From a virus (Duplodnaviria; Caudoviricetes), in IMG/VR virus record IMGVR_UViG_3300044676_000267, positions 1-37,496 of that record: 37,496 nt of DNA, one strand, 5' to 3'. The notes under the pieces are model-generated. The model saw only the letters and a program-made list of their open reading frames with translations, was not told the DNA's origin and did not search any database. Below, piece after piece: positions 1 to 37,300 of this stretch; the first letter of the stretch is position 1; the number at the start of each line of letters is the position of its first letter. Position numbers and translations under genes: made by a program.

Positions 1-127
1 GGGGGGTCGATTTGGCCGAGCGCGCCTGTGTGATTGCGCCTTGCCTGTGCGTATATATGAGAAGCAGACACGTTTGCCCGTAGCCTTTTAACAAGACCGC
101 AGGGATATGCCTTGCCTTTGCTCTGTG
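1..127. repeat. Terminal direct repeat, copy 1 (127 bp); most likely circular-assembly overlap
   Basis: Identical to 37370-37496; 127 is a common maximum assembler k-mer size. Confidence 0.95.
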
Positions 128-231
128 AGCGCGTGTGTGTGTGCGATGAACGTTTTTTCGGGAGGGTTTGGCTAAGCCCTGTGTGTGTCTATCCCTATGT
201 GTGTATATATAGGAATGAGCAGTATACGAGG

Positions 232-648
232 CTAATGCTTGATGTCTTTTGGACTAGACCCCGCGCCAATGGATTTGAGCAGGTGATTCAACTCTGTCTG
301 TAGTTCTTCATCTGTTCGTGTCTTGGTTACGTCTTCTACCTTATGCACTGTCTGGTAGCCTGTACGATCTAGGATGCTGTTGATTGCACCTAACTTGACC
401 GCAGGCGATACCTTGTCATCACTGATAAGGCTCTGGAGTTTCTCAACCGCCATGGGTACAGCACCGCCTAACGCGTGTCGTGTAGCGTCATCAATCTCAT
501 TAGCCAGTTTCTTCTTCAGTTCGTATGCCTGTTGCTCAGCAGTGGCAGGACTGTAGCCCGCGCTGATTGCTGACTGGGTTGCATTGCCCGTCTGACTAAA
601 GTGATGAACAAACAGTTTTTGTTTGTCTGTAAGGGTTTTCGCTGTCAT
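232..648 (-). CDS. terS: Terminase small subunit
   Basis: N-terminal LTDKQKLFVHHF...GNATQSAISAGYS HTH motif typical of Terminase_2; co-oriented and upstream of terL on the circle. Confidence 0.85.
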   Translation of the reverse strand: MTAKTLTDKQKLFVHHFSQTGNATQSAISAGYSPATAEQQAYELKKKLANEIDDATRHALGGAVPMAVEKLQSLISDDKVSPAVKLGAINSILDRTGYQTVHKVEDVTKTRTDEELQTELNHLLKSIGAGSSPKDIKH

Positions 649-654
649 AGCCTC

Positions 655-682
655 ATTATAACCTAAAGTAGTTACAAGGCAA
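655..682 (-). promoter_or_regulatory. sigma70-type promoter for terS, probably leaderless
   Basis: Minus strand TTGCCT-16 nt-TATAAT, then 6 nt to the ATG at 648. Confidence 0.5.
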
Positions 683-703
683 TATATATGTGTAAATAAA
701 TTC

Positions 704-733
704 TTGCGTACATTTATAAATGTGTTATATAAT
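704..733 (+). promoter_or_regulatory. sigma70-type promoter of the left early operon
   Basis: TTGCGT (704-709)-18 nt-TATAAT (728-733) in an AT-rich divergent intergenic region. Confidence 0.6.
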
Positions 734-746
734 TAACCTATGTTAA
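733..746. promoter_or_regulatory. Putative operator TTAAC-N4-GTTAA
   Basis: TTAACCTATGTTAA over the predicted +1; motif recurs at 5975, 6454, 6492, 6523 and 37287. Confidence 0.65.
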
Positions 747-1096
747 ACAACAATGAGGTAAACATCATGGATAATGAAACGATAAAGCAAGCCGTGCAGA
801 TGCGTAAGGCGCATTTGAATCTGATTAAGTGGGCTTTGAATGAAGGCTGTGCAATCAGTGTCTATTGCGAAGGCGATGACTTGATTGAGGATTCTACAAA
901 GTACACTGACATCAAGGAGCATACTGAATCAGTAGACATTGCTGAATTAGTATTCACTAAAGATGGCAAGCGTAAAGGTTGGGCATTGATTGTCTTTGGC
1001 AACGAGGATGATGAGTTGGTGTCTGACCACACCGCTAATGAGTGGATGGAATCTTGGTGGACTCAATACAACAAAATGTATGAGGCAACACAATGA
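740..1096 (+). CDS. Hypothetical early protein (start 740 if leaderless, or 767 with SD GAGG)
   Basis: ORF directly after promoter; ATGA overlap with next gene. Confidence 0.8.
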   Translation: MLNNNEVNIMDNETIKQAVQMRKAHLNLIKWALNEGCAISVYCEGDDLIEDSTKYTDIKEHTESVDIAELVFTKDGKRKGWALIVFGNEDDELVSDHTANEWMESWWTQYNKMYEATQ

Positions 1097-1290
1097 AAAC
1101 ATTTTTAAACGTATTTGGAGCGTGTGCAGTGGCTGTCGGATTGATGGCCATTGCAGGCAGTGCCAATGATTGTGATGGTAAATGTATGGAGTATGCCAAC
1201 GATTTGCCCACAATGCTTATGGTCATAGGTTATGGCCTAATTTCAATAATTGGTGGCGGAGCATGTTTGTTCGCTGCCAATAAATTTTAA
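1093..1290 (+). CDS. Small membrane protein (two hydrophobic segments around a CxxxC loop)
   Basis: ATGA coupling; hydrophobic N- and C-terminal stretches. Confidence 0.75.
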   Translation: MKTFLNVFGACAVAVGLMAIAGSANDCDGKCMEYANDLPTMLMVIGYGLISIIGGGACLFAANKF

Positions 1291-1306
1291 CAAAGGAGCA
1301 ACAACA

Positions 1307-1897
1307 ATGAGCAAAGTAAAAGCAGAAATGATGGATGAAACTGAGGTCAACCATATCGAGGATGCACAAGCAGCAACGGCAGAGGATAACCAAATAGCCG
1401 CCAACCTTGCGGGTGATTGCTACAACCAATTGACAGGCAACATGGTTCACACGTTTGCAGAGCAGTTGGTTGACACTGATGAAGACCTAGCAAACAAAAT
1501 CACATCAGCAATAACGTTTGCATTGCAGGACAAGTATTATCGGAGCATTGCAGACATTAAAAAGACTAGCAACACAGGTGGCACGCATTTACACGGTTAC
1601 ATCAAAAGAACATACCCGCAGTTGGTCGAGGTGTTTGGCGAGCCGCATTTTCGTTACATACCGCGAGCAGGTGCAGAGGATAAGATTGACGTTGAATGGG
1701 CATTTGAGTTCCCTGATGGTCGTGTGTTTACTGTGTACAACTGGAAGAACGGCAAGGCGTATTGCGGCACAGATGGCATGGACGTTGAGGCCATGACAGA
1801 GTGGAATGTCGGAGCGCATAAAATGTCATCTTTCCATGCCTTAACCGAGTTACTAGACATCAAACTGGGCAAAGGTGAGTCAAATGCAGCGCGATAA
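1307..1897 (+). CDS. Hypothetical phage protein
   Basis: SD AAGGAG before ATG 1307; C-terminal half GTHLHGYI...LVEVFGEP...KIDVEW...FTVYNWK...EWNVGA resembles a common phage family of unknown function. Confidence 0.8.
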   Translation: MSKVKAEMMDETEVNHIEDAQAATAEDNQIAANLAGDCYNQLTGNMVHTFAEQLVDTDEDLANKITSAITFALQDKYYRSIADIKKTSNTGGTHLHGYIKRTYPQLVEVFGEPHFRYIPRAGAEDKIDVEWAFEFPDGRVFTVYNWKNGKAYCGTDGMDVEAMTEWNVGAHKMSSFHALTELLDIKLGKGESNAAR

Positions 1898-2090
1898 GTT
1901 CATAAGCGTTGATGAGGTTTGGGTCAAAGCAATCGTAGATGAACATTTGAAAGGTCTTAGCCCGTCACAGCGGGTTGAGGCTTTTCAGTATCTACGGGTA
2001 AACCTAGACAAGTTATATCAAGGATTGGACGAAGGTTTGCGCCTTTGTCTTGATGATTGGCACAAGAAAAAGAACGCGGGTGATTTGTGA
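1884..2090 (+). CDS. Hypothetical protein
   Basis: Overlaps previous gene end, GGTGAG SD-like site; fills operon. Confidence 0.7.
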   Translation: MQRDKFISVDEVWVKAIVDEHLKGLSPSQRVEAFQYLRVNLDKLYQGLDEGLRLCLDDWHKKKNAGDL

Positions 2091-2245
2091 TCTGGCGTTT
2101 TTTGTTAAGCGGATTCATTTGGACTCTTGCCATTTACCAATGGTGGGGCGGTGAGAGTCTGGATGCAACCGTTGTCGCAATGTGGGGCGTGATAAATATC
2201 TGGCACGCTATCGAATCAAATAGAAGAAAGGAAATGAAACAATGA
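2087..2245 (+). CDS. 52-aa Trp-rich membrane protein (absent from ORF track)
   Basis: Translated by hand: MIWRFLLSGFIWTLAIYQWWGGESLDATVVAMWGVINIWHAIESNRRKEMKQ; GTGA and ATGA overlaps at both ends. Confidence 0.7.
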   Translation: MIWRFLLSGFIWTLAIYQWWGGESLDATVVAMWGVINIWHAIESNRRKEMKQ

Positions 2246-2577
2246 GCAAAGAAAAAGCAATCGAATATCTAAAAACAATAATCAGTGAGGGTGACACCAT
2301 TTACTACGTTGTCAAACAGGTCAGCAATTCTGGCATGTACAGACACATCACGTTTTACAAATTTGGTGTCAAAGATGAGTTCCGTGAAGGTGAGGACAGG
2401 ATTGAAGCGTATTGGCTAACGCGTACAATGTGCAATGCCTTGGACTACAGATTCAAGGACAAAACTGAGTGCATGGGCGTGTCTGGTTGTGGCATGGACA
2501 TGGGTTTCCATGTGATTCATCAACTTGGTCATGTGTTGTTTGGCGATGGATACAAATTAAAATCTAAATCGCTGTAA
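2242..2577 (+). CDS. Conserved phage hypothetical protein
   Basis: VSNSGMYRHI and GCGMDMGFH motifs, recognisable from a recurrent phage family; SD AAGGA. Confidence 0.8.
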   Translation: MSKEKAIEYLKTIISEGDTIYYVVKQVSNSGMYRHITFYKFGVKDEFREGEDRIEAYWLTRTMCNALDYRFKDKTECMGVSGCGMDMGFHVIHQLGHVLFGDGYKLKSKSL

Positions 2578-2934
2578 CTATTCATAAAACAAATTATTCC
2601 TTGTGAACGGGTTGGATGGATTTATCTGACCCGTTTTTTTATCTTCATAGTTTAACCAATCAAGCACCTCTTTCAGCAGTTCTTTTTGTGTACCAAAGTT
2701 TCCTGTAAATTCTGCAGGACTCTGGTGATAACCGTATGTTCCACGGTGATGCAGATAACACAGGGGGATCACCTCATAATGACTAGACCGCTTGCCCATG
2801 CCCGTCTGGTGTTTGATGTGGTGCAGTTCTGCAGGTGAATCGTAATGGCCTAACTTAGCACAGGCGATGCAACCCAAATCAGCAACGCGTGACATGTGTT
2901 TCTTTTCTTCTGCGTTTGCAGGTTTCTTAGCCAT
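2578..2934 (-). CDS. Ref-family (HNH-like, zinc-binding) recombination enhancement nuclease
   Basis: GCIAC...AELHH...GMGKRSSHYEVIPLCYLHHRG motif pattern. Confidence 0.75.
   Translation of the reverse strand: MAKKPANAEEKKHMSRVADLGCIACAKLGHYDSPAELHHIKHQTGMGKRSSHYEVIPLCYLHHRGTYGYHQSPAEFTGNFGTQKELLKEVLDWLNYEDKKTGQINPSNPFTRNNLFYE
2606..2640 (+). terminator. Intrinsic terminator of the left early operon
   Basis: AACGGGTTGGAT-loop-ATCTGACCCGTT stem running into a T7 tract, 28 nt after the stop at 2577. Confidence 0.75.
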
Positions 2935-3265
2935 ATTGTTTCCGTTCAATAGTCTGGTTAATCATGTTCGTTTTCCATTTCTCAAAGTTTATATCAACGA
3001 TTTTCTTTTCCCATGCCCATTTAAGTTCTTCTTCAATTGCAATGCCTAACGCTTCAATGTGTTTCTTGTAACGGTCATCAGCACGCGCTTCACGTTCCTG
3101 CCCTGCTGCTGTCTTCTCACCTTTGACCATGTATTCTTTCATAAGATCGGACAACATTATCTGTCTACCATGTTCAAGCACTACAACGTCACGCTTTGCA
3201 GCCGCATGTTTCTGCCCAATCTCACGCAGTTTATGTAGTTGTTGTTCTTTACTGTCCTCTGACAT
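2927..3265 (-). CDS. Helical/coiled-coil phage protein of a recombination-associated type
   Basis: QEREARADDRY...EEELKW...FEKWKT pattern; coupled between helicase and Ref-like gene. Confidence 0.65.
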   Translation of the reverse strand: MSEDSKEQQLHKLREIGQKHAAAKRDVVVLEHGRQIMLSDLMKEYMVKGEKTAAGQEREARADDRYKKHIEALGIAIEEELKWAWEKKIVDINFEKWKTNMINQTIERKQYG

Positions 3266-4745
3266 AAGCACCCCCATTTGCTTTGGCTTTTTTGATTCTT
3301 AGATGCTGAAGAAAGCCTTTGACCTCATCACCTACAGGCATTGGCATCACACGTTTACTGTGTGGAAAATGCCCAAACTTTTCTTTGAATGTCCAATCTG
3401 CCCAACCTTGCTTGTATCCTTTTTGCTTGGAGTGATACAGCAGTTGTGCATAGAAGTTCTGTTTGTCTTGTGCAGTGGTTTCGTCCTTGTCTTTCTCAAG
3501 TTCAACCAATCTGCCTTGCTTCACCAATACTTTTTTGTCTGCCTCTGTTGGTGCATGACCACACACAGGACAAGTTCGATAGACTCTTGTAGGCTGATAC
3601 ACAGTATTACATTGAGTACAGGTGAACGGTTGTTTTTCTACTGGCGTTGATTTCTTTTTTGGTCGTGTAATTTTATCTTCTGTTAGTTCCCATTCAGGCA
3701 CATCTTCAGGGAATCCATGCTCATACACACAACCAGAATGGTCGATAATTAATGTGTCTTGTTTGTTTTCAAACGGTCTGAGTGATCGTCCAACCATTTG
3801 CAGGTAAAGGCCATAAGATTTAGTAGGTCTGGCAAGTACAACACATGAAACCTTGGGTTCATCCCATCCTTCTGTCAGCACTTGGCAGTTAGACAACACC
3901 TTTATCTTACCTACATGCAAATCATGCAGCACTTGCTCACGTTCTAGTTCATCCATTTCACCATCAACATGCCCTGCAGGTATGCCGTTATCATTAAATA
4001 TTTTTGCAATGAATCTGCTGTGGGCAATAGATGTAGCAAACACAACAGTTGGTCGGTTCTCTGCATGTCGTATCCAATGAGTAACCAAATCACCAACTAA
4101 TTTAGGTTTATTCATTCGTGTGTTTAGACCACGTTTCTCATAGTCACCTGCCATAATCTTCAAACCTTGCAAGTCTGGCATGGTCGGTGCAACAACACGG
4201 TTTGACACAAGGAATCCTTGAGCAACTAAATCTCTGATGTTTCCGCATTCAACAAGATCATCATAGATACCTCCCAAACCTTTGCCATCATTGCGCACAG
4301 GTGTAGCAGTAAGGCCAATGACATAGGCATCTGGATATTCTTTGATTAAATCTTGGAATGATTTGCTGACAGAACGGTGCGCTTCATCCAATATAATTAG
4401 GTCTGCCTTTGGTTTCATAAAATACTTGTTGTCTTTGCGTATCGTGTACGTTTGGATACTTGCAACCTGTGTTCCTGCACCGATGTTTGCAGAACGTCCT
4501 GCCATCAATACGCCATGATTGACATCAAACTGCCGTAATTTATCAGAACATTGATTAACCAGTTCACGTCTATGAGCAACAAACAAACAACTTTTAAGCC
4601 TTTGTCTGGCTGCTTGTATCATTGCACTAGCAATCACTGTCTTACCGCTACCAGTAGGCGCAACAAGTAACACACGTTTGTTACCCAAACGCATGGACTC
4701 ACGCAAGTTATGCAGTGCTAGTTCTTGATAATGTCTAAGGTGCAT
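3249..4745 (-). CDS. Superfamily 2 DEAH helicase with C-terminal zinc ribbon
   Basis: APTGSGKT (Walker A), DEAH, TAT (motif III), QMVGRSLR (motif VI), CTQC...CPVC. Confidence 0.93.
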   Translation of the reverse strand: MHLRHYQELALHNLRESMRLGNKRVLLVAPTGSGKTVIASAMIQAARQRLKSCLFVAHRRELVNQCSDKLRQFDVNHGVLMAGRSANIGAGTQVASIQTYTIRKDNKYFMKPKADLIILDEAHRSVSKSFQDLIKEYPDAYVIGLTATPVRNDGKGLGGIYDDLVECGNIRDLVAQGFLVSNRVVAPTMPDLQGLKIMAGDYEKRGLNTRMNKPKLVGDLVTHWIRHAENRPTVVFATSIAHSRFIAKIFNDNGIPAGHVDGEMDELEREQVLHDLHVGKIKVLSNCQVLTEGWDEPKVSCVVLARPTKSYGLYLQMVGRSLRPFENKQDTLIIDHSGCVYEHGFPEDVPEWELTEDKITRPKKKSTPVEKQPFTCTQCNTVYQPTRVYRTCPVCGHAPTEADKKVLVKQGRLVELEKDKDETTAQDKQNFYAQLLYHSKQKGYKQGWADWTFKEKFGHFPHSKRVMPMPVGDEVKGFLQHLRIKKAKANGGAYVRGQ

Positions 4746-5559
4746 ATCTACTCCAAATATCTTTTACCTGAAACAATACTTCGTTGTGGTTTTCAGGTGG
4801 GTTACACGCGTTAGCAAACTTCAACGCTTCTTCACGCGCATAGTCTTCAGACTCACCACGCATTCTTATGGCAATCAACATCTTGACTAATGCAGCATGT
4901 CTATCGCCTTCACCTACACCATATCGCAACGTACCTGTGTATTTACCTTGGTACATTGATGGCTTGTAATCTGTTTTTATGGCAGGTTTTTGTGGTCGTT
5001 GCAGACCAAGGCCATCGCGTATCTCTGCCATTGTGTATGGTGTATCAATGCCCTGCGCACCAATTACTTTGATTGGATATGGCTTTGACTTGTTGTGGTA
5101 AAAGCCTGCAATACGCATTACACGGGGCAAGTCTTTGACAACAGGGTCACTGTTGTACTTTGCAGCCAATGCTTGCTGATACAATGTAAATGATTCCATA
5201 GGCATATCATCTACAAGCCAATAGCAATGGTATTTATCTGGTGATGTATTGAGTATGATGTTGGGCTTTAACTCAAAGTGATCTGGCAATGGCGCACCAT
5301 CCAAATCAATAAACACAGCCCTAATCTTTGTTATGTTCTTTGTTGTTCTACCATGCAAATCAGTTTGATTGACGGTAAAAAACACACCTGCACCCTGCTT
5401 GTTCAATGACCATAGTTCTTCAAGGTGTTCTTCAAGTGTGCCATGTAGTTGTTTGGTAATCCTACGGTTCTTACCTTTGTCACAAAACGTTTGGAAACTA
5501 TGATGTGTTCCAAATGCTTCTATAAACACTGCGTAATGACTATTTGGATTGTACCTCAT
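4735..5559 (-). CDS. RepB-type (archaeo-eukaryotic) DNA primase with PriCT-like C-terminal domain
   Basis: AVFIDLDG, TSPDKYHCYW, SDPVVKDLPRVMRIAGF motifs; C-terminal GEGDRHAAL...NPPE. Confidence 0.85.
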   Translation of the reverse strand: MRYNPNSHYAVFIEAFGTHHSFQTFCDKGKNRRITKQLHGTLEEHLEELWSLNKQGAGVFFTVNQTDLHGRTTKNITKIRAVFIDLDGAPLPDHFELKPNIILNTSPDKYHCYWLVDDMPMESFTLYQQALAAKYNSDPVVKDLPRVMRIAGFYHNKSKPYPIKVIGAQGIDTPYTMAEIRDGLGLQRPQKPAIKTDYKPSMYQGKYTGTLRYGVGEGDRHAALVKMLIAIRMRGESEDYAREEALKFANACNPPENHNEVLFQVKDIWSRYAP

Positions 5560-5929
5560 CCCTACCCCATCGTTTCTCAGCACCTTTTCTACCTGCTGCT
5601 TGGCGTTTCTTACGGTTCTCTGCTTGCTCTTTACGTTCTTCTTCTGCCTGCAAACAAATTAGATACATACCGTCTTTGTCTTTGATCTGTTGAAACATGT
5701 CCTGCATGTTAGGCCACATCTTTTTTATCTTCTCAATCGTGCAGTTACACATCCTTGACATAACTTCGTAATCGAACGGTATCCTAAAACCACGCCAACA
5801 ATGACAGTAAAGCAGAATGTATGCGCCTTGTTCTTCAAGCGTCATTCTCATTCTGTTTGGTTCGCTAATCCAATCGTTTGCGTAAAACTGAAACGCAGGT
5901 GATTGTTCATGTGTCTGTCGTTTTCTCAT
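5540..5929 (-). CDS. DUF1376/YdaU-like replication initiator, N-terminal domain only
   Basis: SPAFQFYANDW...MTLEEQGAYILL and KRQAAGRKGAEKRW; stops 8 aa after the KRW motif. Confidence 0.8.
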   Translation of the reverse strand: MRKRQTHEQSPAFQFYANDWISEPNRMRMTLEEQGAYILLYCHCWRGFRIPFDYEVMSRMCNCTIEKIKKMWPNMQDMFQQIKDKDGMYLICLQAEEERKEQAENRKKRQAAGRKGAEKRWGRDEVQSK

Positions 5930-5959
5930 TGTTGCCTGTTAATTTTTGTTAATGACAAT

Positions 5960-5988
5960 AATATAATCTGAATGTTAACCTATGTCAA
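5960..5988 (-). promoter_or_regulatory. sigma70 promoter of the replication operon with overlapping operator (5975-5988)
   Basis: TTGACA-17 nt-TATATT; TTAACCTATGTCAA overlaps the -35. Confidence 0.75.
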
Positions 5989-6036
5989 CACCAATTTATA
6001 TTGGGTGTGTACTGTCTGTACTATCTTGGTTGTAGT

Positions 6037-6133
6037 TGAAGGTGAAGATGAAGGTGAAGATGAAGATGAAGGGGATACTTTTGCCATTAGCAAAACGATG
6101 GCAAACACATAGCATTGCCATAGCATTGCCATA
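6037..6133. repeat. Iteron-like block, putative replication origin
   Basis: 6x TGAAGR (6037-6072); inverted pair TTTGCCAT/ATGGCAAA (6080-6105); 2.4x CATAGCATTGC (6108-6133). Confidence 0.65.
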
Positions 6134-6143
6134 CTTTTGAGAT

Positions 6144-6190
6144 AAAAAAAAGGGAGGCAGGCCAACAATGAGAAAAAGCCTAACCTCCCT
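6144..6190 (-). terminator. Intrinsic terminator after the cro-like gene with a 15-nt antisense loop
   Basis: AGGGAGG(U)UAGGC / GCCUGCCUCCCU stem then U7; loop UUUUUCUCAUUGUUG. Confidence 0.8.
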
Positions 6191-6208
6191 GCCGCTAGTA
6201 TTTTTAAC

Positions 6209-6448
6209 CTACGCGGAGTGGTCTACCCCCTGCGGCTGCGGGGCAATTTCATGCTTTAGATCAGGACGAATATAATCCAGATCAAAGTCGCCCAAGTCTG
6301 CTATCTGATAAGCACGCAGAGGCGGTATAACTTGCCATTTAGACACGGCAGGATGACTGATATTTAGCAGTCTGGCTAGGTTTCTACCGCCATACTTACC
6401 AACTACCTCTGTCTTACGCTCTTTTGCAAGTTCATACAGTAAACTCAT
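6209..6448 (-). CDS. Cro/YdaS-like HTH transcriptional regulator
   Basis: GGRNLARLLNISHPAVSKW..IPPLRAYQI, classic Cro-like HTH. Confidence 0.85.
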   Translation of the reverse strand: MSLLYELAKERKTEVVGKYGGRNLARLLNISHPAVSKWQVIPPLRAYQIADLGDFDLDYIRPDLKHEIAPQPQGVDHSA

Positions 6449-6476
6449 AGTTTATAACCTTTGTTAATACACATAA

Positions 6477-6505
6477 ATAATACATACAGTCTTAACTAAT
6501 GTCAA
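6477..6505 (-). promoter_or_regulatory. Promoter of the cro-like gene with operator 6492-6505 (second operator 6454-6467)
   Basis: TTGACA-17 nt-TATTAT; TTAACTAATGTCAA overlaps the -35; ATAACCTTTGTTAA overlaps the RBS region. Confidence 0.75.
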
Positions 6506-6513
6506 CAAAACAC

Positions 6514-6542
6514 TTGCATTTGGTAACTTATGTTAATATAAT
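6514..6542 (+). promoter_or_regulatory. Promoter of the ssb/nuclease operon with operator in the spacer (6523-6536)
   Basis: TTGCAT-17 nt-TATAAT; GTAACTTATGTTAA in spacer. Confidence 0.75.
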
Positions 6543-6579
6543 GGGCATTCAAATAGTAAATATACAAAAAGGAGCAAAC

Positions 6580-7194
6580 ATGAGTCTAATAGCAAAAACA
6601 GTAGACAATGAGTCTAAGTATCCTGAAGTAGCAACTGGTGTACACAAGGCACGATGCGTTAAGGTCATTGATCTTGGTACACAAGAAAACAACTACGATG
6701 GACAAGTCACATGGAAACACCAGTGCATGATTATCTGGGAAGTTCCATCACAATCTAACAACAACGGTGAGCCGCTGACAATCAGTAAGTTTTACACGTT
6801 GTCTTTACATGAGAAGGCTACACTAGGTAATGACCTATCATCATGGCGAGGCCGTCCATTTACAGAAATGGAAAAGAAAGGCTTTGATATATCAAAGTTG
6901 GTTGGCGTGCCATGTATGATTAACGTTATGGAAGGCAAGAATGGTAAGCCGCGTGTGTCATCCATTATGCCATTGTCAAAAGATGAGCAGTTGGCTGAAC
7001 AGTTCCATGAGGCTGTAGTCTTTAGCGTTGATGAATACCAAAAAGGCAACCGTGATGAATTTAACAAACTGCCTGATGGTATCCGTAACATAATCCTACG
7101 TTCAAAAGAGTTGGTAGATTCACAAGACATGGGTGATGAGAGGAATGGTCAAGACGTACCAGACCTTACCAACGATGAAGACATACCATTTTAG
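6580..7194 (+). CDS. SSB-like phage replication/recombination protein (NGO0469-like)
   Basis: SD AAGGAG; GVHKARCVKVIDLGTQ motif; acidic C-terminal tail ending EDIPF like SSB tails. Confidence 0.75.
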   Translation: MSLIAKTVDNESKYPEVATGVHKARCVKVIDLGTQENNYDGQVTWKHQCMIIWEVPSQSNNNGEPLTISKFYTLSLHEKATLGNDLSSWRGRPFTEMEKKGFDISKLVGVPCMINVMEGKNGKPRVSSIMPLSKDEQLAEQFHEAVVFSVDEYQKGNRDEFNKLPDGIRNIILRSKELVDSQDMGDERNGQDVPDLTNDEDIPF

Positions 7195-7203
7195 GGGGTA
7201 GTT

Positions 7204-8094
7204 ATGAAGATAACTAACAATCAAAACCTGCCTGCTGCAGTACAGCGTGCAGTTACTAATGACCCGTATGATGCAACTGGTAGTGACATTTCTGCAACAC
7301 GTTTGTTGCAACCACCACGCATTACAGCACTAACCAAGAAACACTATGAATCGTTAGAAGAAGACGTATCAGACCGTATCTGGTCATTGCTAGGGCAATC
7401 AGTACACCATGTCATAGAACGTGCCTCAGAAGGCACACAGGACATCACAGAGCAGCGTTTATTCGTGAAGAATGATATGACCCATGAATGGACACTATCT
7501 GGTACATTTGACTATCTATCGCATGATGGACAGTTAATTGACTTCAAGACTACATCTGCATGGTCTGCAATGGATGCCACAATCAAAGGCAAGCCAGAAT
7601 GGGAAGCACAACTTAACATACTTGATTGGCTGATTCGTCATTCATCATCAGAAATCAAGATTAAAGTTAAGTCTTTGTCTATCATGGCTATCCTTCGTGA
7701 TTGGTCTAAGTTAAAAGCGTTAACTTCAGACAATTATCCAAAGCAACAGGCTGTGATGATACCGATTAAACGTTGGTCACCTGAAGAACAGGATGAGTAT
7801 GTATCTAATCGTATCATTCTGCATCAAGCAGCAATGGAAGTAGATGAGCCGCCTGTATGTACACCTGAAGAACGTTGGAACAAACCAGACACCTACGCCA
7901 TTATGAAAGATGGCCGTAAGTCTGCGTTGCGATTGTTGCCTACACGGGAAGAAGCCGAGAAGTACCTGTCCGACAATAACATGAAGGAAGGTAAAGGCTG
8001 TCAGATTGTATTGCGTAAAGGTGAAGACACACGTTGCGCCCACTACTGCAGTGTTAACAAGTTCTGTAGTCACTGGAACAATGTCGCGTTTTAA
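7204..8094 (+). CDS. Cas4-like PD-(D/E)XK exonuclease
   Basis: GQSVHHVIE, LSGTFD...LIDFKT, QLN; Cys cluster VCTPEERW...RCAHYCSVNKFC. Confidence 0.8.
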   Translation: MKITNNQNLPAAVQRAVTNDPYDATGSDISATRLLQPPRITALTKKHYESLEEDVSDRIWSLLGQSVHHVIERASEGTQDITEQRLFVKNDMTHEWTLSGTFDYLSHDGQLIDFKTTSAWSAMDATIKGKPEWEAQLNILDWLIRHSSSEIKIKVKSLSIMAILRDWSKLKALTSDNYPKQQAVMIPIKRWSPEEQDEYVSNRIILHQAAMEVDEPPVCTPEERWNKPDTYAIMKDGRKSALRLLPTREEAEKYLSDNNMKEGKGCQIVLRKGEDTRCAHYCSVNKFCSHWNNVAF

Positions 8095-8314
8095 ACTAAC
8101 AAAAGACCCATTAGTTGCTGCCATAATCAAACGAGGCAATGATCGTTCAAATCAAGGCTTTGAAGATTATGGTGGCAGCATGGCAGATGCAGACAAGCCT
8201 CTGCTTGAGTGGATAGATGATGCCCAAGAAGAATTGTGGGATACCATAGTCTATCTTGAGAAGATAAAATCAGTGGTAGCAAAGTTAAGTGGTGAGCCTA
8301 CCAAAAAGAAATAA
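8081..8314 (+). CDS. Small all-alpha MazG-like nucleotide pyrophosphohydrolase (putative)
   Basis: G..YG...WIDDAQEELWDTIVYLEK with EExxD motif; ATG 8081 overlaps previous gene. Confidence 0.55.
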   Translation: MSRFKLTKDPLVAAIIKRGNDRSNQGFEDYGGSMADADKPLLEWIDDAQEELWDTIVYLEKIKSVVAKLSGEPTKKK

Positions 8315-8523
8315 TGGATTTAATCATACTAACTGATGGCATGTATCACTTGATACCTGTAACAGAGTTGATGTTACAAAATGTTACAATGGTAAAAGAG
8401 TTTAATGTTGCTGATCTATGTGATGTATTACGCTTAAAACTAACCACATACTATGAATATCCCATCAATCAACATCTGATGAAGGATGGTAGTGGTGCGT
8501 TTTATGGCTGTATTATGCGCTAA
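8314..8523 (+). CDS. Hypothetical protein
   Basis: TAATG coupling to previous gene; ends at the convergence point with the endolysin. Confidence 0.7.
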   Translation: MDLIILTDGMYHLIPVTELMLQNVTMVKEFNVADLCDVLRLKLTTYYEYPINQHLMKDGSGAFYGCIMR

Positions 8524-8972
8524 TTAAGTTCAAAATGTGGCGCATCAATAAATGGTCTACGCCTTTCAGCACGCCTTTCATCTATGTAACTGTTCATAGC
8601 GTCTTCCATAGATAGATTCCATTCTGCAATGTCTGGCACTGTCCATGCAGCACCCCATCTAATCCTTACGCCTTGATTCTTTGCAGCCTCACGCATTGCT
8701 TCAGCAATGTCATCGTACACGTTTAGTTCCCATGTACCTCTGCCCCCAATATATGCCATCAAGTCTACTGCATCACCTGTCAAATGCTTTGACTTCATGG
8801 TTTGACTAGCACCTTTTTCTACCAAAGCACGCTGTTCTTCCTCTGTTCTAAGACCACAGATAACGCCAAAGTCTACCTTGGTTAATTCAATTGCCTCTAA
8901 TACCACATCAAACAACTCTGGTTTGACAGGTTCTAATCTACTCAAAGACCTTTCTGATAGTTTAAATGTCAT
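8520..8972 (-). CDS. Endolysin, peptidase M15 (L-Ala-D-Glu peptidase-like)
   Basis: GLRTEEEQ, SKHLTGDAVD, DAPHFEL zinc-binding motifs. Confidence 0.9.
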   Translation of the reverse strand: MTFKLSERSLSRLEPVKPELFDVVLEAIELTKVDFGVICGLRTEEEQRALVEKGASQTMKSKHLTGDAVDLMAYIGGRGTWELNVYDDIAEAMREAAKNQGVRIRWGAAWTVPDIAEWNLSMEDAMNSYIDERRAERRRPFIDAPHFELN

Positions 8973-9373
8973 TTAGTTAATCCTTTCGATTTCTCATAAC
9001 TTCTGAGGCCACCAAGTCCTAGCATTCCAAGCAAAACAGTCATCAAACTGTCCATGTCAAATGCAGGCAGTTCAGGTATCTCTATGCCAGACCACCCTGC
9101 TACAAATAAAATTATAGGGTTAAGCACAAAATGATACCCAAGAGCAACAGCACATATCCAACCCACGAATGGTCGCCACCCCGCCACAAAAAGACTACGG
9201 TGTTTAGCCTCCGCTTGATTAACTGCAACCTGTGCCATAGCGGCCTCGTGAGCCTGCTTTTCCGCCATAGTCGCAATCTCATGCGCCAACTTATTTTTGG
9301 TATCTTTGTCTTCAATAAATTTATCTAGCAAACCAGTAACAGGGCCAACTAGACTACCTAGTAATTGTATCAT
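8969..9373 (-). CDS. Holin (3TM, GTA-type family)
   Basis: GWRPFVGWIC and GMLGLGGLRSYEK motifs; adjacent to endolysin. Confidence 0.85.
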   Translation of the reverse strand: MIQLLGSLVGPVTGLLDKFIEDKDTKNKLAHEIATMAEKQAHEAAMAQVAVNQAEAKHRSLFVAGWRPFVGWICAVALGYHFVLNPIILFVAGWSGIEIPELPAFDMDSLMTVLLGMLGLGGLRSYEKSKGLTK

Positions 9374-12682: not shown

Positions 12683-14001
12683 TAGACTTTATTCATTCTT
12701 GCGCCATACATAGCGTATGCAATTAAACTACCTACTGATGGGTAAGATAATGCTGATGTATTACCATCTACAATGACCCACATATACCATCTATAGCCAT
12801 AACCGCTTGAGTTAAATGAACCAGACATAACAGTACAATCACTTGCAGAACCCCCGCCACCTGCATAACCTCTGCCTAAATGTGTCCAATTAGACAAAGT
12901 AGTAAAATTACCTGAAGTTATGCTTTGGTTAGAACCATAAATATCAAAGTTACCGCAAGCATTAGTGTGCTTTAACCATTGCCATTGATTTAAAACTCTT
13001 GGCGTTCCAGAGCCGCTAACAACTTGAATGGCTGTATAATGAGGCCAAGTACCTGAGTGACCTGAGTGTATTTTGAAACTATCACAAACATAATTCCAAT
13101 GGTTAGCAGGGTCGTTAGGTGTTGCTTGAGCGCAGTTTAAATTGTATGTAGTCATACTATTATTCGTTACACCAGTTGCGTTAGTTGCAACAGAATATGC
13201 AGAAGAAAATCCTCCACCTCCTCCAGAATCCGCAACAGGATTAACTACACTTAGGCTAAATGCTCTATCCGCTGTCTTGCCTCCTGCAGTAGCACGCAAT
13301 GTAAAATTATATGTATCAGTAGCACCTGTAGAGGGGTCTGTTGGGTCGCCACTAATTGCACCAGTAGAAGAATTTAAAGTTAAACCTGCGCCAGATAAAA
13401 CTGAGGTAGTTTCTGAATAGGAAACTGTATCACTTTCTGGGTCTGATGCTGCAACAGTAGCATGCGTACCAGTTTCGGTCATTTCTATTGTGCCTAAACT
13501 ACCGCTTGCTGTTGTCCAAGTAGGTGCATTATCAACATTGATTTGATTTTCAAGAATTCCACTTAATCCAGATGATGCTACAACTTTTACATCATAAGGT
13601 TCTTTAGAATTTTCAAATGAACTTTCTGCAATAACAGCACTAATGCTTGTTGAATTAGTTACAGTAGTCGTTGATGCCGTTACTTCTGTTCCATCATTAC
13701 CAATAAATTTAACGGTTGCGCCTGATGCAAAATTAGTACCTGTAAGGGTAAATGTTTCATTTCCACCACCTGCAGATTCTACTTCTGTAGGGGTTACTGC
13801 ACTAACAGTAGGCGGTGTATCAATGACACGCATTTGTGTGCCATCATAATACTCAGCAAGACCAAGTGTTGTATTAAATCGTATTTGTCCTGTAGTTGTG
13901 CCTCGCTCAGAAGTATGTCCTGATGCGATCTTAGTACCTTCCGTACCAGTATCTACAATGTTTTCAAACTTAAAGTCTGCTATATCTCTTGCTTTAGTCA
14001 T
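12682..14001 (-). CDS. Accessory tail fibre/adhesin with IPT/TIG and Ig-like domains
   Basis: MTKARDIAD start, GQIRFNTT motif, PTVSAVTP...TLTGTNF (IPT), GLTLNSSTGAISG (Ig-like). Confidence 0.8.
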   Translation of the reverse strand: MTKARDIADFKFENIVDTGTEGTKIASGHTSERGTTTGQIRFNTTLGLAEYYDGTQMRVIDTPPTVSAVTPTEVESAGGGNETFTLTGTNFASGATVKFIGNDGTEVTASTTTVTNSTSISAVIAESSFENSKEPYDVKVVASSGLSGILENQINVDNAPTWTTASGSLGTIEMTETGTHATVAASDPESDTVSYSETTSVLSGAGLTLNSSTGAISGDPTDPSTGATDTYNFTLRATAGGKTADRAFSLSVVNPVADSGGGGGFSSAYSVATNATGVTNNSMTTYNLNCAQATPNDPANHWNYVCDSFKIHSGHSGTWPHYTAIQVVSGSGTPRVLNQWQWLKHTNACGNFDIYGSNQSITSGNFTTLSNWTHLGRGYAGGGGSASDCTVMSGSFNSSGYGYRWYMWVIVDGNTSALSYPSVGSLIAYAMYGARMNKV

Positions 14002-31688: not shown

Positions 31689-32510
31689 CTAATTACCATG
31701 CACTTTTTCCATAAGTTGACGCATACGCTCCACAGCCGATTTATGGTCTGGATGGTCTGCTTTAAAATATGGATGATTTGCATTAGCAAAAGTGCTGCTA
31801 ATTTCATCTTGTGCATCTAACCTGTTTGCAGCCAGAGTATTATTTTGCGTATTTTGCGTCATATCCTCTGTTACTTCTGCACCTAGTTTAGAAAACAACT
31901 TAATAACTGCAGGATGGTTACCTGCAGAGGTATTCATTAGTTCCATGATTTCGTCATCACCATATACCTGCAACGCTCTTTGTGCTGCACGAATATTTTT
32001 ACTGTAATCAACACCCCATTCTTTTTTCAAAAAGTCTTCAGTTTCTTCTTTTTGTGTTGCAAGAACAGCAGGTTCATTTTCCAAGTTATGTTGGATTGCG
32101 CCTGCTTGGTAGTTAATCAAAGCATCTACTTGTTTTTGGTTTAGACCAATATCATGTGCAACTTGTTTAAATTGGCTTAGTTCGTTTTCACCAAAATAAG
32201 ATTGCAAGTCTTCTGGTACTTTTGTTTCGTATGCAGATGGGTCATCTGGTCTACCCAGTTTACCGTATAGTTCTTTAAAACCATCCTCATCTTTTGGAAT
32301 CGGAATACGGTTTCCCATTTGCTTTTGTTGATGTACTACAGTCTTTGCTAGACTTTCCACATCCTTAAAATTAGATAAGGTTGGGTCATTTCTTAGATCG
32401 TCAGGTAGTGAAGATTTCCAATCAAGGTTATCGCTCACCCCTTCAGACCCAAGAACAGTAGTGTCTTGAGTTACCTGTTCGGTGGTAACGGCCTCTGCGT
32501 TTTCTGACAT
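31689..32510 (-). CDS. Capsid assembly scaffold protein
   Basis: Position between portal and MCP; LGRPD, LKKEWG, GNHPAVI, HPDHK motifs. Confidence 0.75.
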   Translation of the reverse strand: MSENAEAVTTEQVTQDTTVLGSEGVSDNLDWKSSLPDDLRNDPTLSNFKDVESLAKTVVHQQKQMGNRIPIPKDEDGFKELYGKLGRPDDPSAYETKVPEDLQSYFGENELSQFKQVAHDIGLNQKQVDALINYQAGAIQHNLENEPAVLATQKEETEDFLKKEWGVDYSKNIRAAQRALQVYGDDEIMELMNTSAGNHPAVIKLFSKLGAEVTEDMTQNTQNNTLAANRLDAQDEISSTFANANHPYFKADHPDHKSAVERMRQLMEKVHGN

Positions 32511-37241: not shown

Positions 37242-37300
37242 ACTATACCCGAAACTTAACTTTACGCAACTCCCATGTGATATTCGTTAACTTACGTTAA
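37242..37300 (-). promoter_or_regulatory. Late promoter candidate with upstream operator copy (37287-37300)
   Basis: TTGCGT-16 nt-TATAGT, 7 nt to ATG 37234; TTAACTTACGTTAA upstream. Confidence 0.55.

Follow-up and report, generated by a model that had tools for sequence, protein, structure and literature searches.

A hairpin with a large, pyrimidine-rich loop lies directly behind the cro-like gene of a podophage, and its loop is complementary to the translation start of the initiator-like gene and to several early translation starts. Related phages carry many different loops, which change together with their target starts. Because the loop complements these starts and changes with them, the hairpin probably serves as a trans-acting antisense RNA that blocks translation of the first gene of the replication operon and of early genes; we put the probability of this sequence-based reading at about 0.75.

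The hairpin and its matches in one phage genome

The window (the whole 37,496-nt stretch analysed here) is an entire 37.5-kb contig of a podophage. A PHROGs scan of 42 ORFs matched terminase, portal-type adaptor, capsid, tail, lysis, helicase and primase genes, and detected no integrase. The capsid protein shares 77.6% identity with that of Pelagibacter phage EXVC032P Baldr, whose host is Pelagibacter HTCC1062, and ∼57% with that of HTVC010P. The group comprises widely distributed marine phages that are kin of SAR11 viruses, with Baldr as a cultured member. Baldr (OQ414636.1) has the same order of cro, hairpin, origin block and initiator, with the hairpin, at ∼32245–32297, left without annotation in its record, and it is the sole record among 50,697 that bears this initiator or cro. 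The host of the window phage is possibly not SAR11, because the window has a GC content of 41.3% and the Baldr stretch one of 32%. HTVC010P-type pelagiphages are recognised by a G+C content of 29–36% and at least 40% shared genes, and their groups include lytic and integrase-bearing ones (PMC8477408). The window lies outside that G+C range, and the available text of the same source does not mention such an RNA. Among genome contigs, the single match to the locus was a 6.3-kb Pelagibacter MAG contig, which is uninformative about integration.

The cro-like gene (6209–6448, minus strand; P22_Cro PF14549, E 1e-10) has a predicted promoter at 6477–6505 (minus strand, 11/12 consensus) that overlaps an operator-like 14-mer at 6492–6505. 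On the same strand lies a DUF1376 (YdaU-type) initiator-like gene that encodes the N-terminal domain only (5540–5929; PF07120, E 8e-7, slightly below the curated cut-off); its neighbour at 4735–5559 has a domain match to RepB-type primases. The predicted replication-operon promoter (5960–5988, minus strand, 11/12) likewise contains an operator-like 14-mer (5975–5988), and another such palindrome lies at the early promoter (733–746, plus strand). In total the 14-mer occurs five times against 0.27 expected (733–746, 5975–5988, 6492–6505, 6523–6536 and 37287–37300), in the early, replication, cro and ssb promoter regions and in one late promoter region, and we infer that Cro binds these sites. 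The 14-mer is kept in relatives though the loop–target code varies over at least 20 types. The early and replication operons converge on a hairpin of 14 pairs with T runs (2605–2636), likely a two-way terminator.

The hairpin behind cro occupies positions 6144–6190 on the minus strand, with a stem (6190–6178 paired with 6162–6151), a loop (6177–6163) that reads UUUUUCUCAUUGUUG, and a U7 tail (6150–6144). A 12-bp stem, 15-nt loop and U7 tail had been described in an earlier sequence-only reading of this DNA, and all three are present; RNAfold adds one closing U–G pair to give 13 pairs and a 13-nt loop at −26.1 kcal/mol (z −2.48; 3 of 200 shuffles were equally good). The window hairpin has the form of an intrinsic terminator, a GC-rich stem followed by a U run, and is overlooked by the terminator scanner because its loop exceeds 8 nt. 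The name terminator suits this genome; it does not extend to the family, where only 12 of 20 loop types have at least five U among the eight bases after the stem. RNA data came from five RNA runs, from which X1–X3 and X8, all assembled contigs, were compared with the window. Identical full-length pieces fall at 5861–6100 (X1), 6230–6454 and 12954–13193 (X2), and 6299–6434 (X3); none spans the hairpin and, as contigs, they are uninformative on expression, ends and strand. We rejected as a function a plus-strand 35-codon ORF that begins in the loop, since the anti-AUG triplet occurs in only 8 of 20 loops.

The main target is the start region of the initiator-like gene (5921–5938, minus strand). 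Here a 14-nt loop complement at 5921–5934 extends, with one bulge, to 18 bp and into the 3′ arm of the stem. Three further targets lie on the plus strand: in the leader of the first early gene (748–757), where the site terminates in the first three bases of the GAGG Shine–Dalgarno (SD) sequence ahead of ATG 767, and at the starts of the early genes 1307–1897 (site 1302–1311) and 2242–2577 (site 2238–2246). Motif counts and duplex energies point to all three, and the family test described below covered the first early leader as well as internal early genes. A genome-wide count found four copies of CAACAATGAG against 0.21 expected, a number reached in 0 of 100 shuffles, and five of AACAATGAG against 0.79; apart from the loop itself, every copy lies inside a start window. 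When the 43 starts annotated within this analysis were ranked by duplex energy, the top four were 5929 (−17.3), 767 (−14.0), 1307 (−13.6) and 2242 (−12.9), the same four at which the sequence-only reading had noticed the loop core. The 7-mers pointed out at 1093 and 8081 exist but are background, ranking 14th (−7.7) and 26th (−6.6), and we rejected 8081 and, more weakly, 1093 as targets.

Nine of the 14 initiator target bases are ATGAGAAAA, which is also the commonest start in loci without a called hairpin (24 of 54), so the target is partly fixed by the protein. The early targets have no Pfam match, and their PHROGs matches are all of unknown function. The start of ssb, which replication requires, is not among the targets. 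In co-folding predictions the 3′ arm is able to bind the leader of the initiator or the SD of 1307, with a net gain from opening the stem of only about −6 kcal/mol over the folded hairpin. Extension of the pairing by an anti-SD 3′ arm agrees with prediction in the window; as a conserved family feature the anti-SD arm is not supported, the family arms being merely C-rich. An anti-SD-like word stands within the loop itself in 13 of 20 loop types.

Loops and target starts change together across relatives

We fetched 241 loci, which with the window make 242, many being one contig retrieved repeatedly. A Cro match was present in 230, of which 14 were dropped for an absent origin block, leaving a redundant set of 216. 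Starts in relatives came from a simple in-house caller. A hairpin was called behind cro in 162 of the 216 loci (46 distinct strings) and left uncalled in 54, one of which (L109) has a hairpin that overlaps the cro stop; the large-loop hairpin is therefore present behind cro in at least 163 of the 216 redundant loci, Baldr included. Up to 53 loci are without it, so the hairpin is dispensable; a quick tree, in which 18 of 47 branches are open, spreads these loci over several separate branches. One hairpin-less lineage (L066–L070) has a 600–700 bp insertion between cro and the origin block. The loops fall into 20 types at 72% identity, are 8–40 nt long and 65–90% pyrimidine, and contain an anti-AUG or anti-SD-like word in 18 of 20 types. 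The automated pick erred for L117, which was left out of the tests, and for the L106 group, whose hairpin was picked by hand. In L046 and L055 the hairpin loop measures 40 nt and includes an inner stem and a strong anti-SD word; it is without a clear own-phage target among the tested starts, and might aim at another gene or a host mRNA.

To quantify co-variation, we computed the pairing of every loop with the start windows of every phage, double-centred the resulting matrix, and tested its diagonal by permutation. For the first gene of the replication operon (n = 20 types), own pairings reached −12.6 kcal/mol versus −9.3 for cross pairings (p = 5e-5), with the own target ranked first in 9 of 20. 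For the first early leader (n = 14), the values were −13.0 versus −9.9 kcal/mol (p = 5e-5), with the own target in the top three in 12 of 14. Both p-values were unchanged within GC classes, and became 0.0001 (replication gene) and 0.0002 (early leader) without the hand-picked L016, and 0.0001 and 0.0014 without the three largest types. The loop types are related by descent; when related types were merged by clade, by hand, the signal persisted (n = 11, p = 0.0013; n = 8, p = 0.0033), as it did on the untranslated 25 nt alone (p = 0.0011). Control starts of cro, ssb, exonuclease, primase, helicase, a 116-aa gene and terS gave no signal (p 0.25–0.95), nor did lysin and holin (n = 4; p 0.08 and 0.37) or late genes (n = 13; p = 0.14–0.15). 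Weak control signals came from a 123-aa nuclease (p = 0.014–0.025) and terL (0.047 unstratified, range 0.047–0.10); after merging, six controls lay at p 0.37–0.86 and the nuclease at 0.077. Internal early genes gave a weaker signal that derives from a few types (n = 15; p = 0.012–0.033). Co-variation in relatives, which the sequence-only reading had proposed as a check, is borne out for the first gene of the replication operon and for the first early leader; that reading's wider list of early and replication targets is weaker at internal early genes and unsupported at 8081.

Individual loci illustrate these paired changes; an exact-match target search on its own is noisy in AT-rich lineages. 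For example, the L014 loop CAUUGUUUC is accompanied by GAAACAAUG at four starts: the first early gene, the initiator, the primase and another early gene. L176 pairs CAUUGG with CCAAUG, L007 and L168 pair CUCCGUU with AACGGAG, L027 shows a paired change with AACUAAAAUGGA, and Baldr matches UUUCACUC with GAGUGAAA; further concrete cases are L018, L103, L156 and L023. Where genes have been inserted before the initiator (L057, L061 and L065), the loop fits the new first gene. What is conserved as a target is whichever gene comes first after the replication promoter, be it the initiator or another, together with the leader of the first early gene. Counter-cases exist: the loops of L046 and L146 form poor duplexes with either target, those of L007, L008 and L103 fit the early leader and leave the replication gene unmatched, the early leader of L061 ranks 10 of 14, and in the L003 group an alternative first early gene is without a match.

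These results bear on three other explanations. The element could be an ordinary terminator, or an origin-associated DNA hairpin, whose loop resembles the starts through composition, shared ancestry or a local inverted duplication. The loops are U-rich and the leaders A-rich, the hairpin adjoins an origin-like block in a phage that encodes a RepB-type primase, and ATGAGAAAA is kept in loci without the hairpin. However, composition or ancestry should equally affect the ssb, helicase, cro and terS starts, which show no such effect, and the signal remains on untranslated bases; moreover, hairpin-less lineages retain the origin block, and a local duplication fails to explain the distant early leader. 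We consider this account improbable. Nor is it probable that the hairpin acts only in cis, with read-through from the cro promoter joining hairpin and initiator start on one RNA, where the loop would fold back on that start and leave the initiator to be translated only from its own promoter. The loop and the initiator start are 230 nt apart on one strand, the weak U tail of 8 of 20 loop types makes read-through plausible, and no match in the window is stronger than the replication target; yet the first early leader, ∼5 kb away on the opposite strand, co-varies equally strongly, and three types match the early leader only. An effect in cis could accompany action in trans but cannot stand in for it.

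Co-variation alone is silent on strand, and other measures point to RNA of the cro strand. Allowing G–U pairs in cro-sense pairing raises the own-phage advantage, whereas allowing the reverse type lowers it. In the flanks of own-phage exact runs, 17 of 43 mismatches are sense-type wobbles versus 9.2 expected (p = 0.005) and four are of the reverse type versus 5.5 expected; the ratio of the two by itself gives p = 0.06. Of the 20 types, 12 have a U tail on the cro strand and three have one on the opposite strand, the cro strand is the better fold in 17, and the invariant G–U pairs of motif X, a structured element adjoining the hairpin (see next section), exist on the cro strand only. Together these moderately favour cro-sense RNA–RNA pairing over a DNA motif or a plus-strand decoy. 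A phage protein that binds the shared start sequence, as RNA or DNA, and is titrated by a plus-strand copy of the hairpin would accord with the plus-strand loop being a copy of the target and with a weak plus-strand promoter match (9/12) at 5975–6002, but the strand measures above run against it and the loop diversity is excessive for a single binding protein, so we give it little credence.

Motif X and the origin-like block

Motif X (6191–6236, minus strand), which the sequence-only reading overlooked, overlaps the end of cro and adjoins the hairpin upstream. It consists of a 7-bp outer stem, a GGNGUAG / UA(A/C)AARU internal loop, and a 4-bp inner stem. It was found in 125 of the 216 loci and among 10 of the 20 types; 124 of these loci also have the hairpin. 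In an alignment of 23 sequences, 92.3% of the cells are paired, and two-sided changes occur at 9 of the 13 pairs; RNAalifold independently predicts 10 pairs, eight of them with two-sided changes. Motif X was found behind cro only (30 sources); in 23 of the 64 parts of a viral collection, 22 of 97 distinct matches had the GG and a paired inner stem, and all 22 had a cro match. The two elements are separable: the hairpin stands without motif X in many types, and motif X without the hairpin in L120. Rfam returned no match to motif X, the hairpin, ribozymes or riboswitches in window positions 1–9000 or in nine related loci. Motif X is a well-supported structured RNA, separate from the hairpin and without an Rfam family; it may resemble a tRNA D-arm and a T-loop. 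Its outer stem begins within the cro reading frame, and the 5′ part of the RNA therefore lies within the cro transcript. A TAAAAAT in motif X is disfavoured as the −10 box of a separate promoter, as it sits inside covarying stems that start upstream.

Several lineages vary at this position. The L090 and L196 types have a different stem-loop, with a TTCGCAG loop, in the place of motif X, and the L092 and L106 types have one additional hairpin there. In L016 (∼2800–2860) and L037 (∼1040–1100), motif X is followed by an unpaired anti-SD stretch and then a normal small-loop terminator, an arrangement that resembles a classical sRNA; the seed in both was picked by hand, and they were omitted from later tests. 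In L023 (1269–1359, plus strand), and also in L024, a gene resembling a tRNA, whose anticodon arm is enlarged and which has a CCA end, lies between the hairpin and the origin block; it scores 50.7 bits against the Rfam tRNA model, and ARAGORN does not call it.

The origin-like block (6021–6135, minus strand), a putative origin with two 11-bp repeats and a strand-skewed repeat, lies between the hairpin and the initiator promoter and is kept in the 216 loci. In longer DUF1376 relatives, a repeat block stands inside the gene after an AEKRW motif and reads MAKNSSSSS. In the window, the block is outside and upstream of the truncated 129-aa gene, and reads MAKVSPSSSS in one frame. The 6021–6135 block is likely an origin that has shifted out of the initiator gene.

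Proposed mechanism and relation to known antisense RNAs

We propose that the transcript from the cro promoter would end in the hairpin, whose unpaired loop would nucleate on an A-rich leader and cover the SD or AUG; pairing may next invade the 3′ arm. The early and replication promoters share the operator-like 14-mers, through which Cro would repress both, while the antisense RNA of the same transcript would silence mRNA already made from these promoters. Together, Cro and the RNA could form a double lock that ends the early phase and limits replication initiation. Such timing, in which the early phase is closed and the initiator limited, is the likeliest role, because no integrase is seen; a role in superinfection or carrier states is possible. 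The overlap of motif X with the cro stop is a position that fits a dual-function RNA or a 3′UTR-derived sRNA, and more speculatively motif X may define or shield the 5′ end of an RNA piece that is released.

Several described systems resemble parts of this scheme. The c4 RNA of P1 and P7 is trans-encoded, its loops bind the phage's own mRNA around the ribosome-binding site, and its sequence differences lead to heteroimmunity (PMC12197685); the precursors of c4 and of P4 CI are RNase P substrates (PMC5499578). As with c4, the loop described here is complementary to a ribosome-binding region of phage mRNA and, by the computed co-variation, changes with its target. Unlike c4, it is one large-loop hairpin directly behind cro, and its predicted targets, the first gene of the replication operon and the early leaders, fall into two separate operons, with none identified as an antirepressor. 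The Rfam c4 models were unmatched in window positions 1–9000 at E ≤ 5 and in nine related loci at E ≤ 3. In OxyS, exposed terminator-loop bases pair with the fhlA translation initiation region (PMC11979758). The proposed kissing of a terminator loop with a translation initiation region is similar, but OxyS is a host sRNA with its own gene, whereas this is a phage element that ends a coding transcript and whose U tail is not conserved.

RNAII of pMV158 is a separate countertranscript. Together with the transcriptional repressor CopG, this antisense RNA controls the initiator repB (PMC4485353). The logic of a repressor and an antisense RNA aimed at a replication initiator would be shared, but here the RNA lies on the repressor's own strand, without overlap with the rep leader, and would use short-loop pairing with several targets; nor is there a minus-strand promoter match between 6190 and 6470 that would give it a promoter of its own, as RNAII has. 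Lambda OOP is located between cro and the replication genes. It is cis-encoded antisense to cII with its own promoter, pO (PMC12197685). Both would be small regulatory RNAs of cro-bearing phages, but the element described here shares its strand with cro, lies apart from its targets and complements these distant sequences only in part. From sequence comparison, the best reading is a variant of phage trans-acting antisense RNA, c4-like in logic and a member of none of the c4, pMV158 and OxyS families. A search of the accessible literature found nothing on this element.

The observation is real and not confined to this genome. It points to control by RNA of both early genes and replication in marine phages of a widespread group, for which we found no prior report, and the 20 loop–target pairs with compensatory changes form a natural set that is directly testable in reporters. 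We also conjecture, as a bolder and rather doubtful extension, that one transcript yields both Cro and a released, structure-protected antisense RNA, with motif X as the processing or protection element, and that this RNA forms a self/non-self lock in integrase-less marine phages. If that were so, the early and replication genes of a superinfecting phage of the same type would be silenced, or a carrier state would be held in starved hosts.
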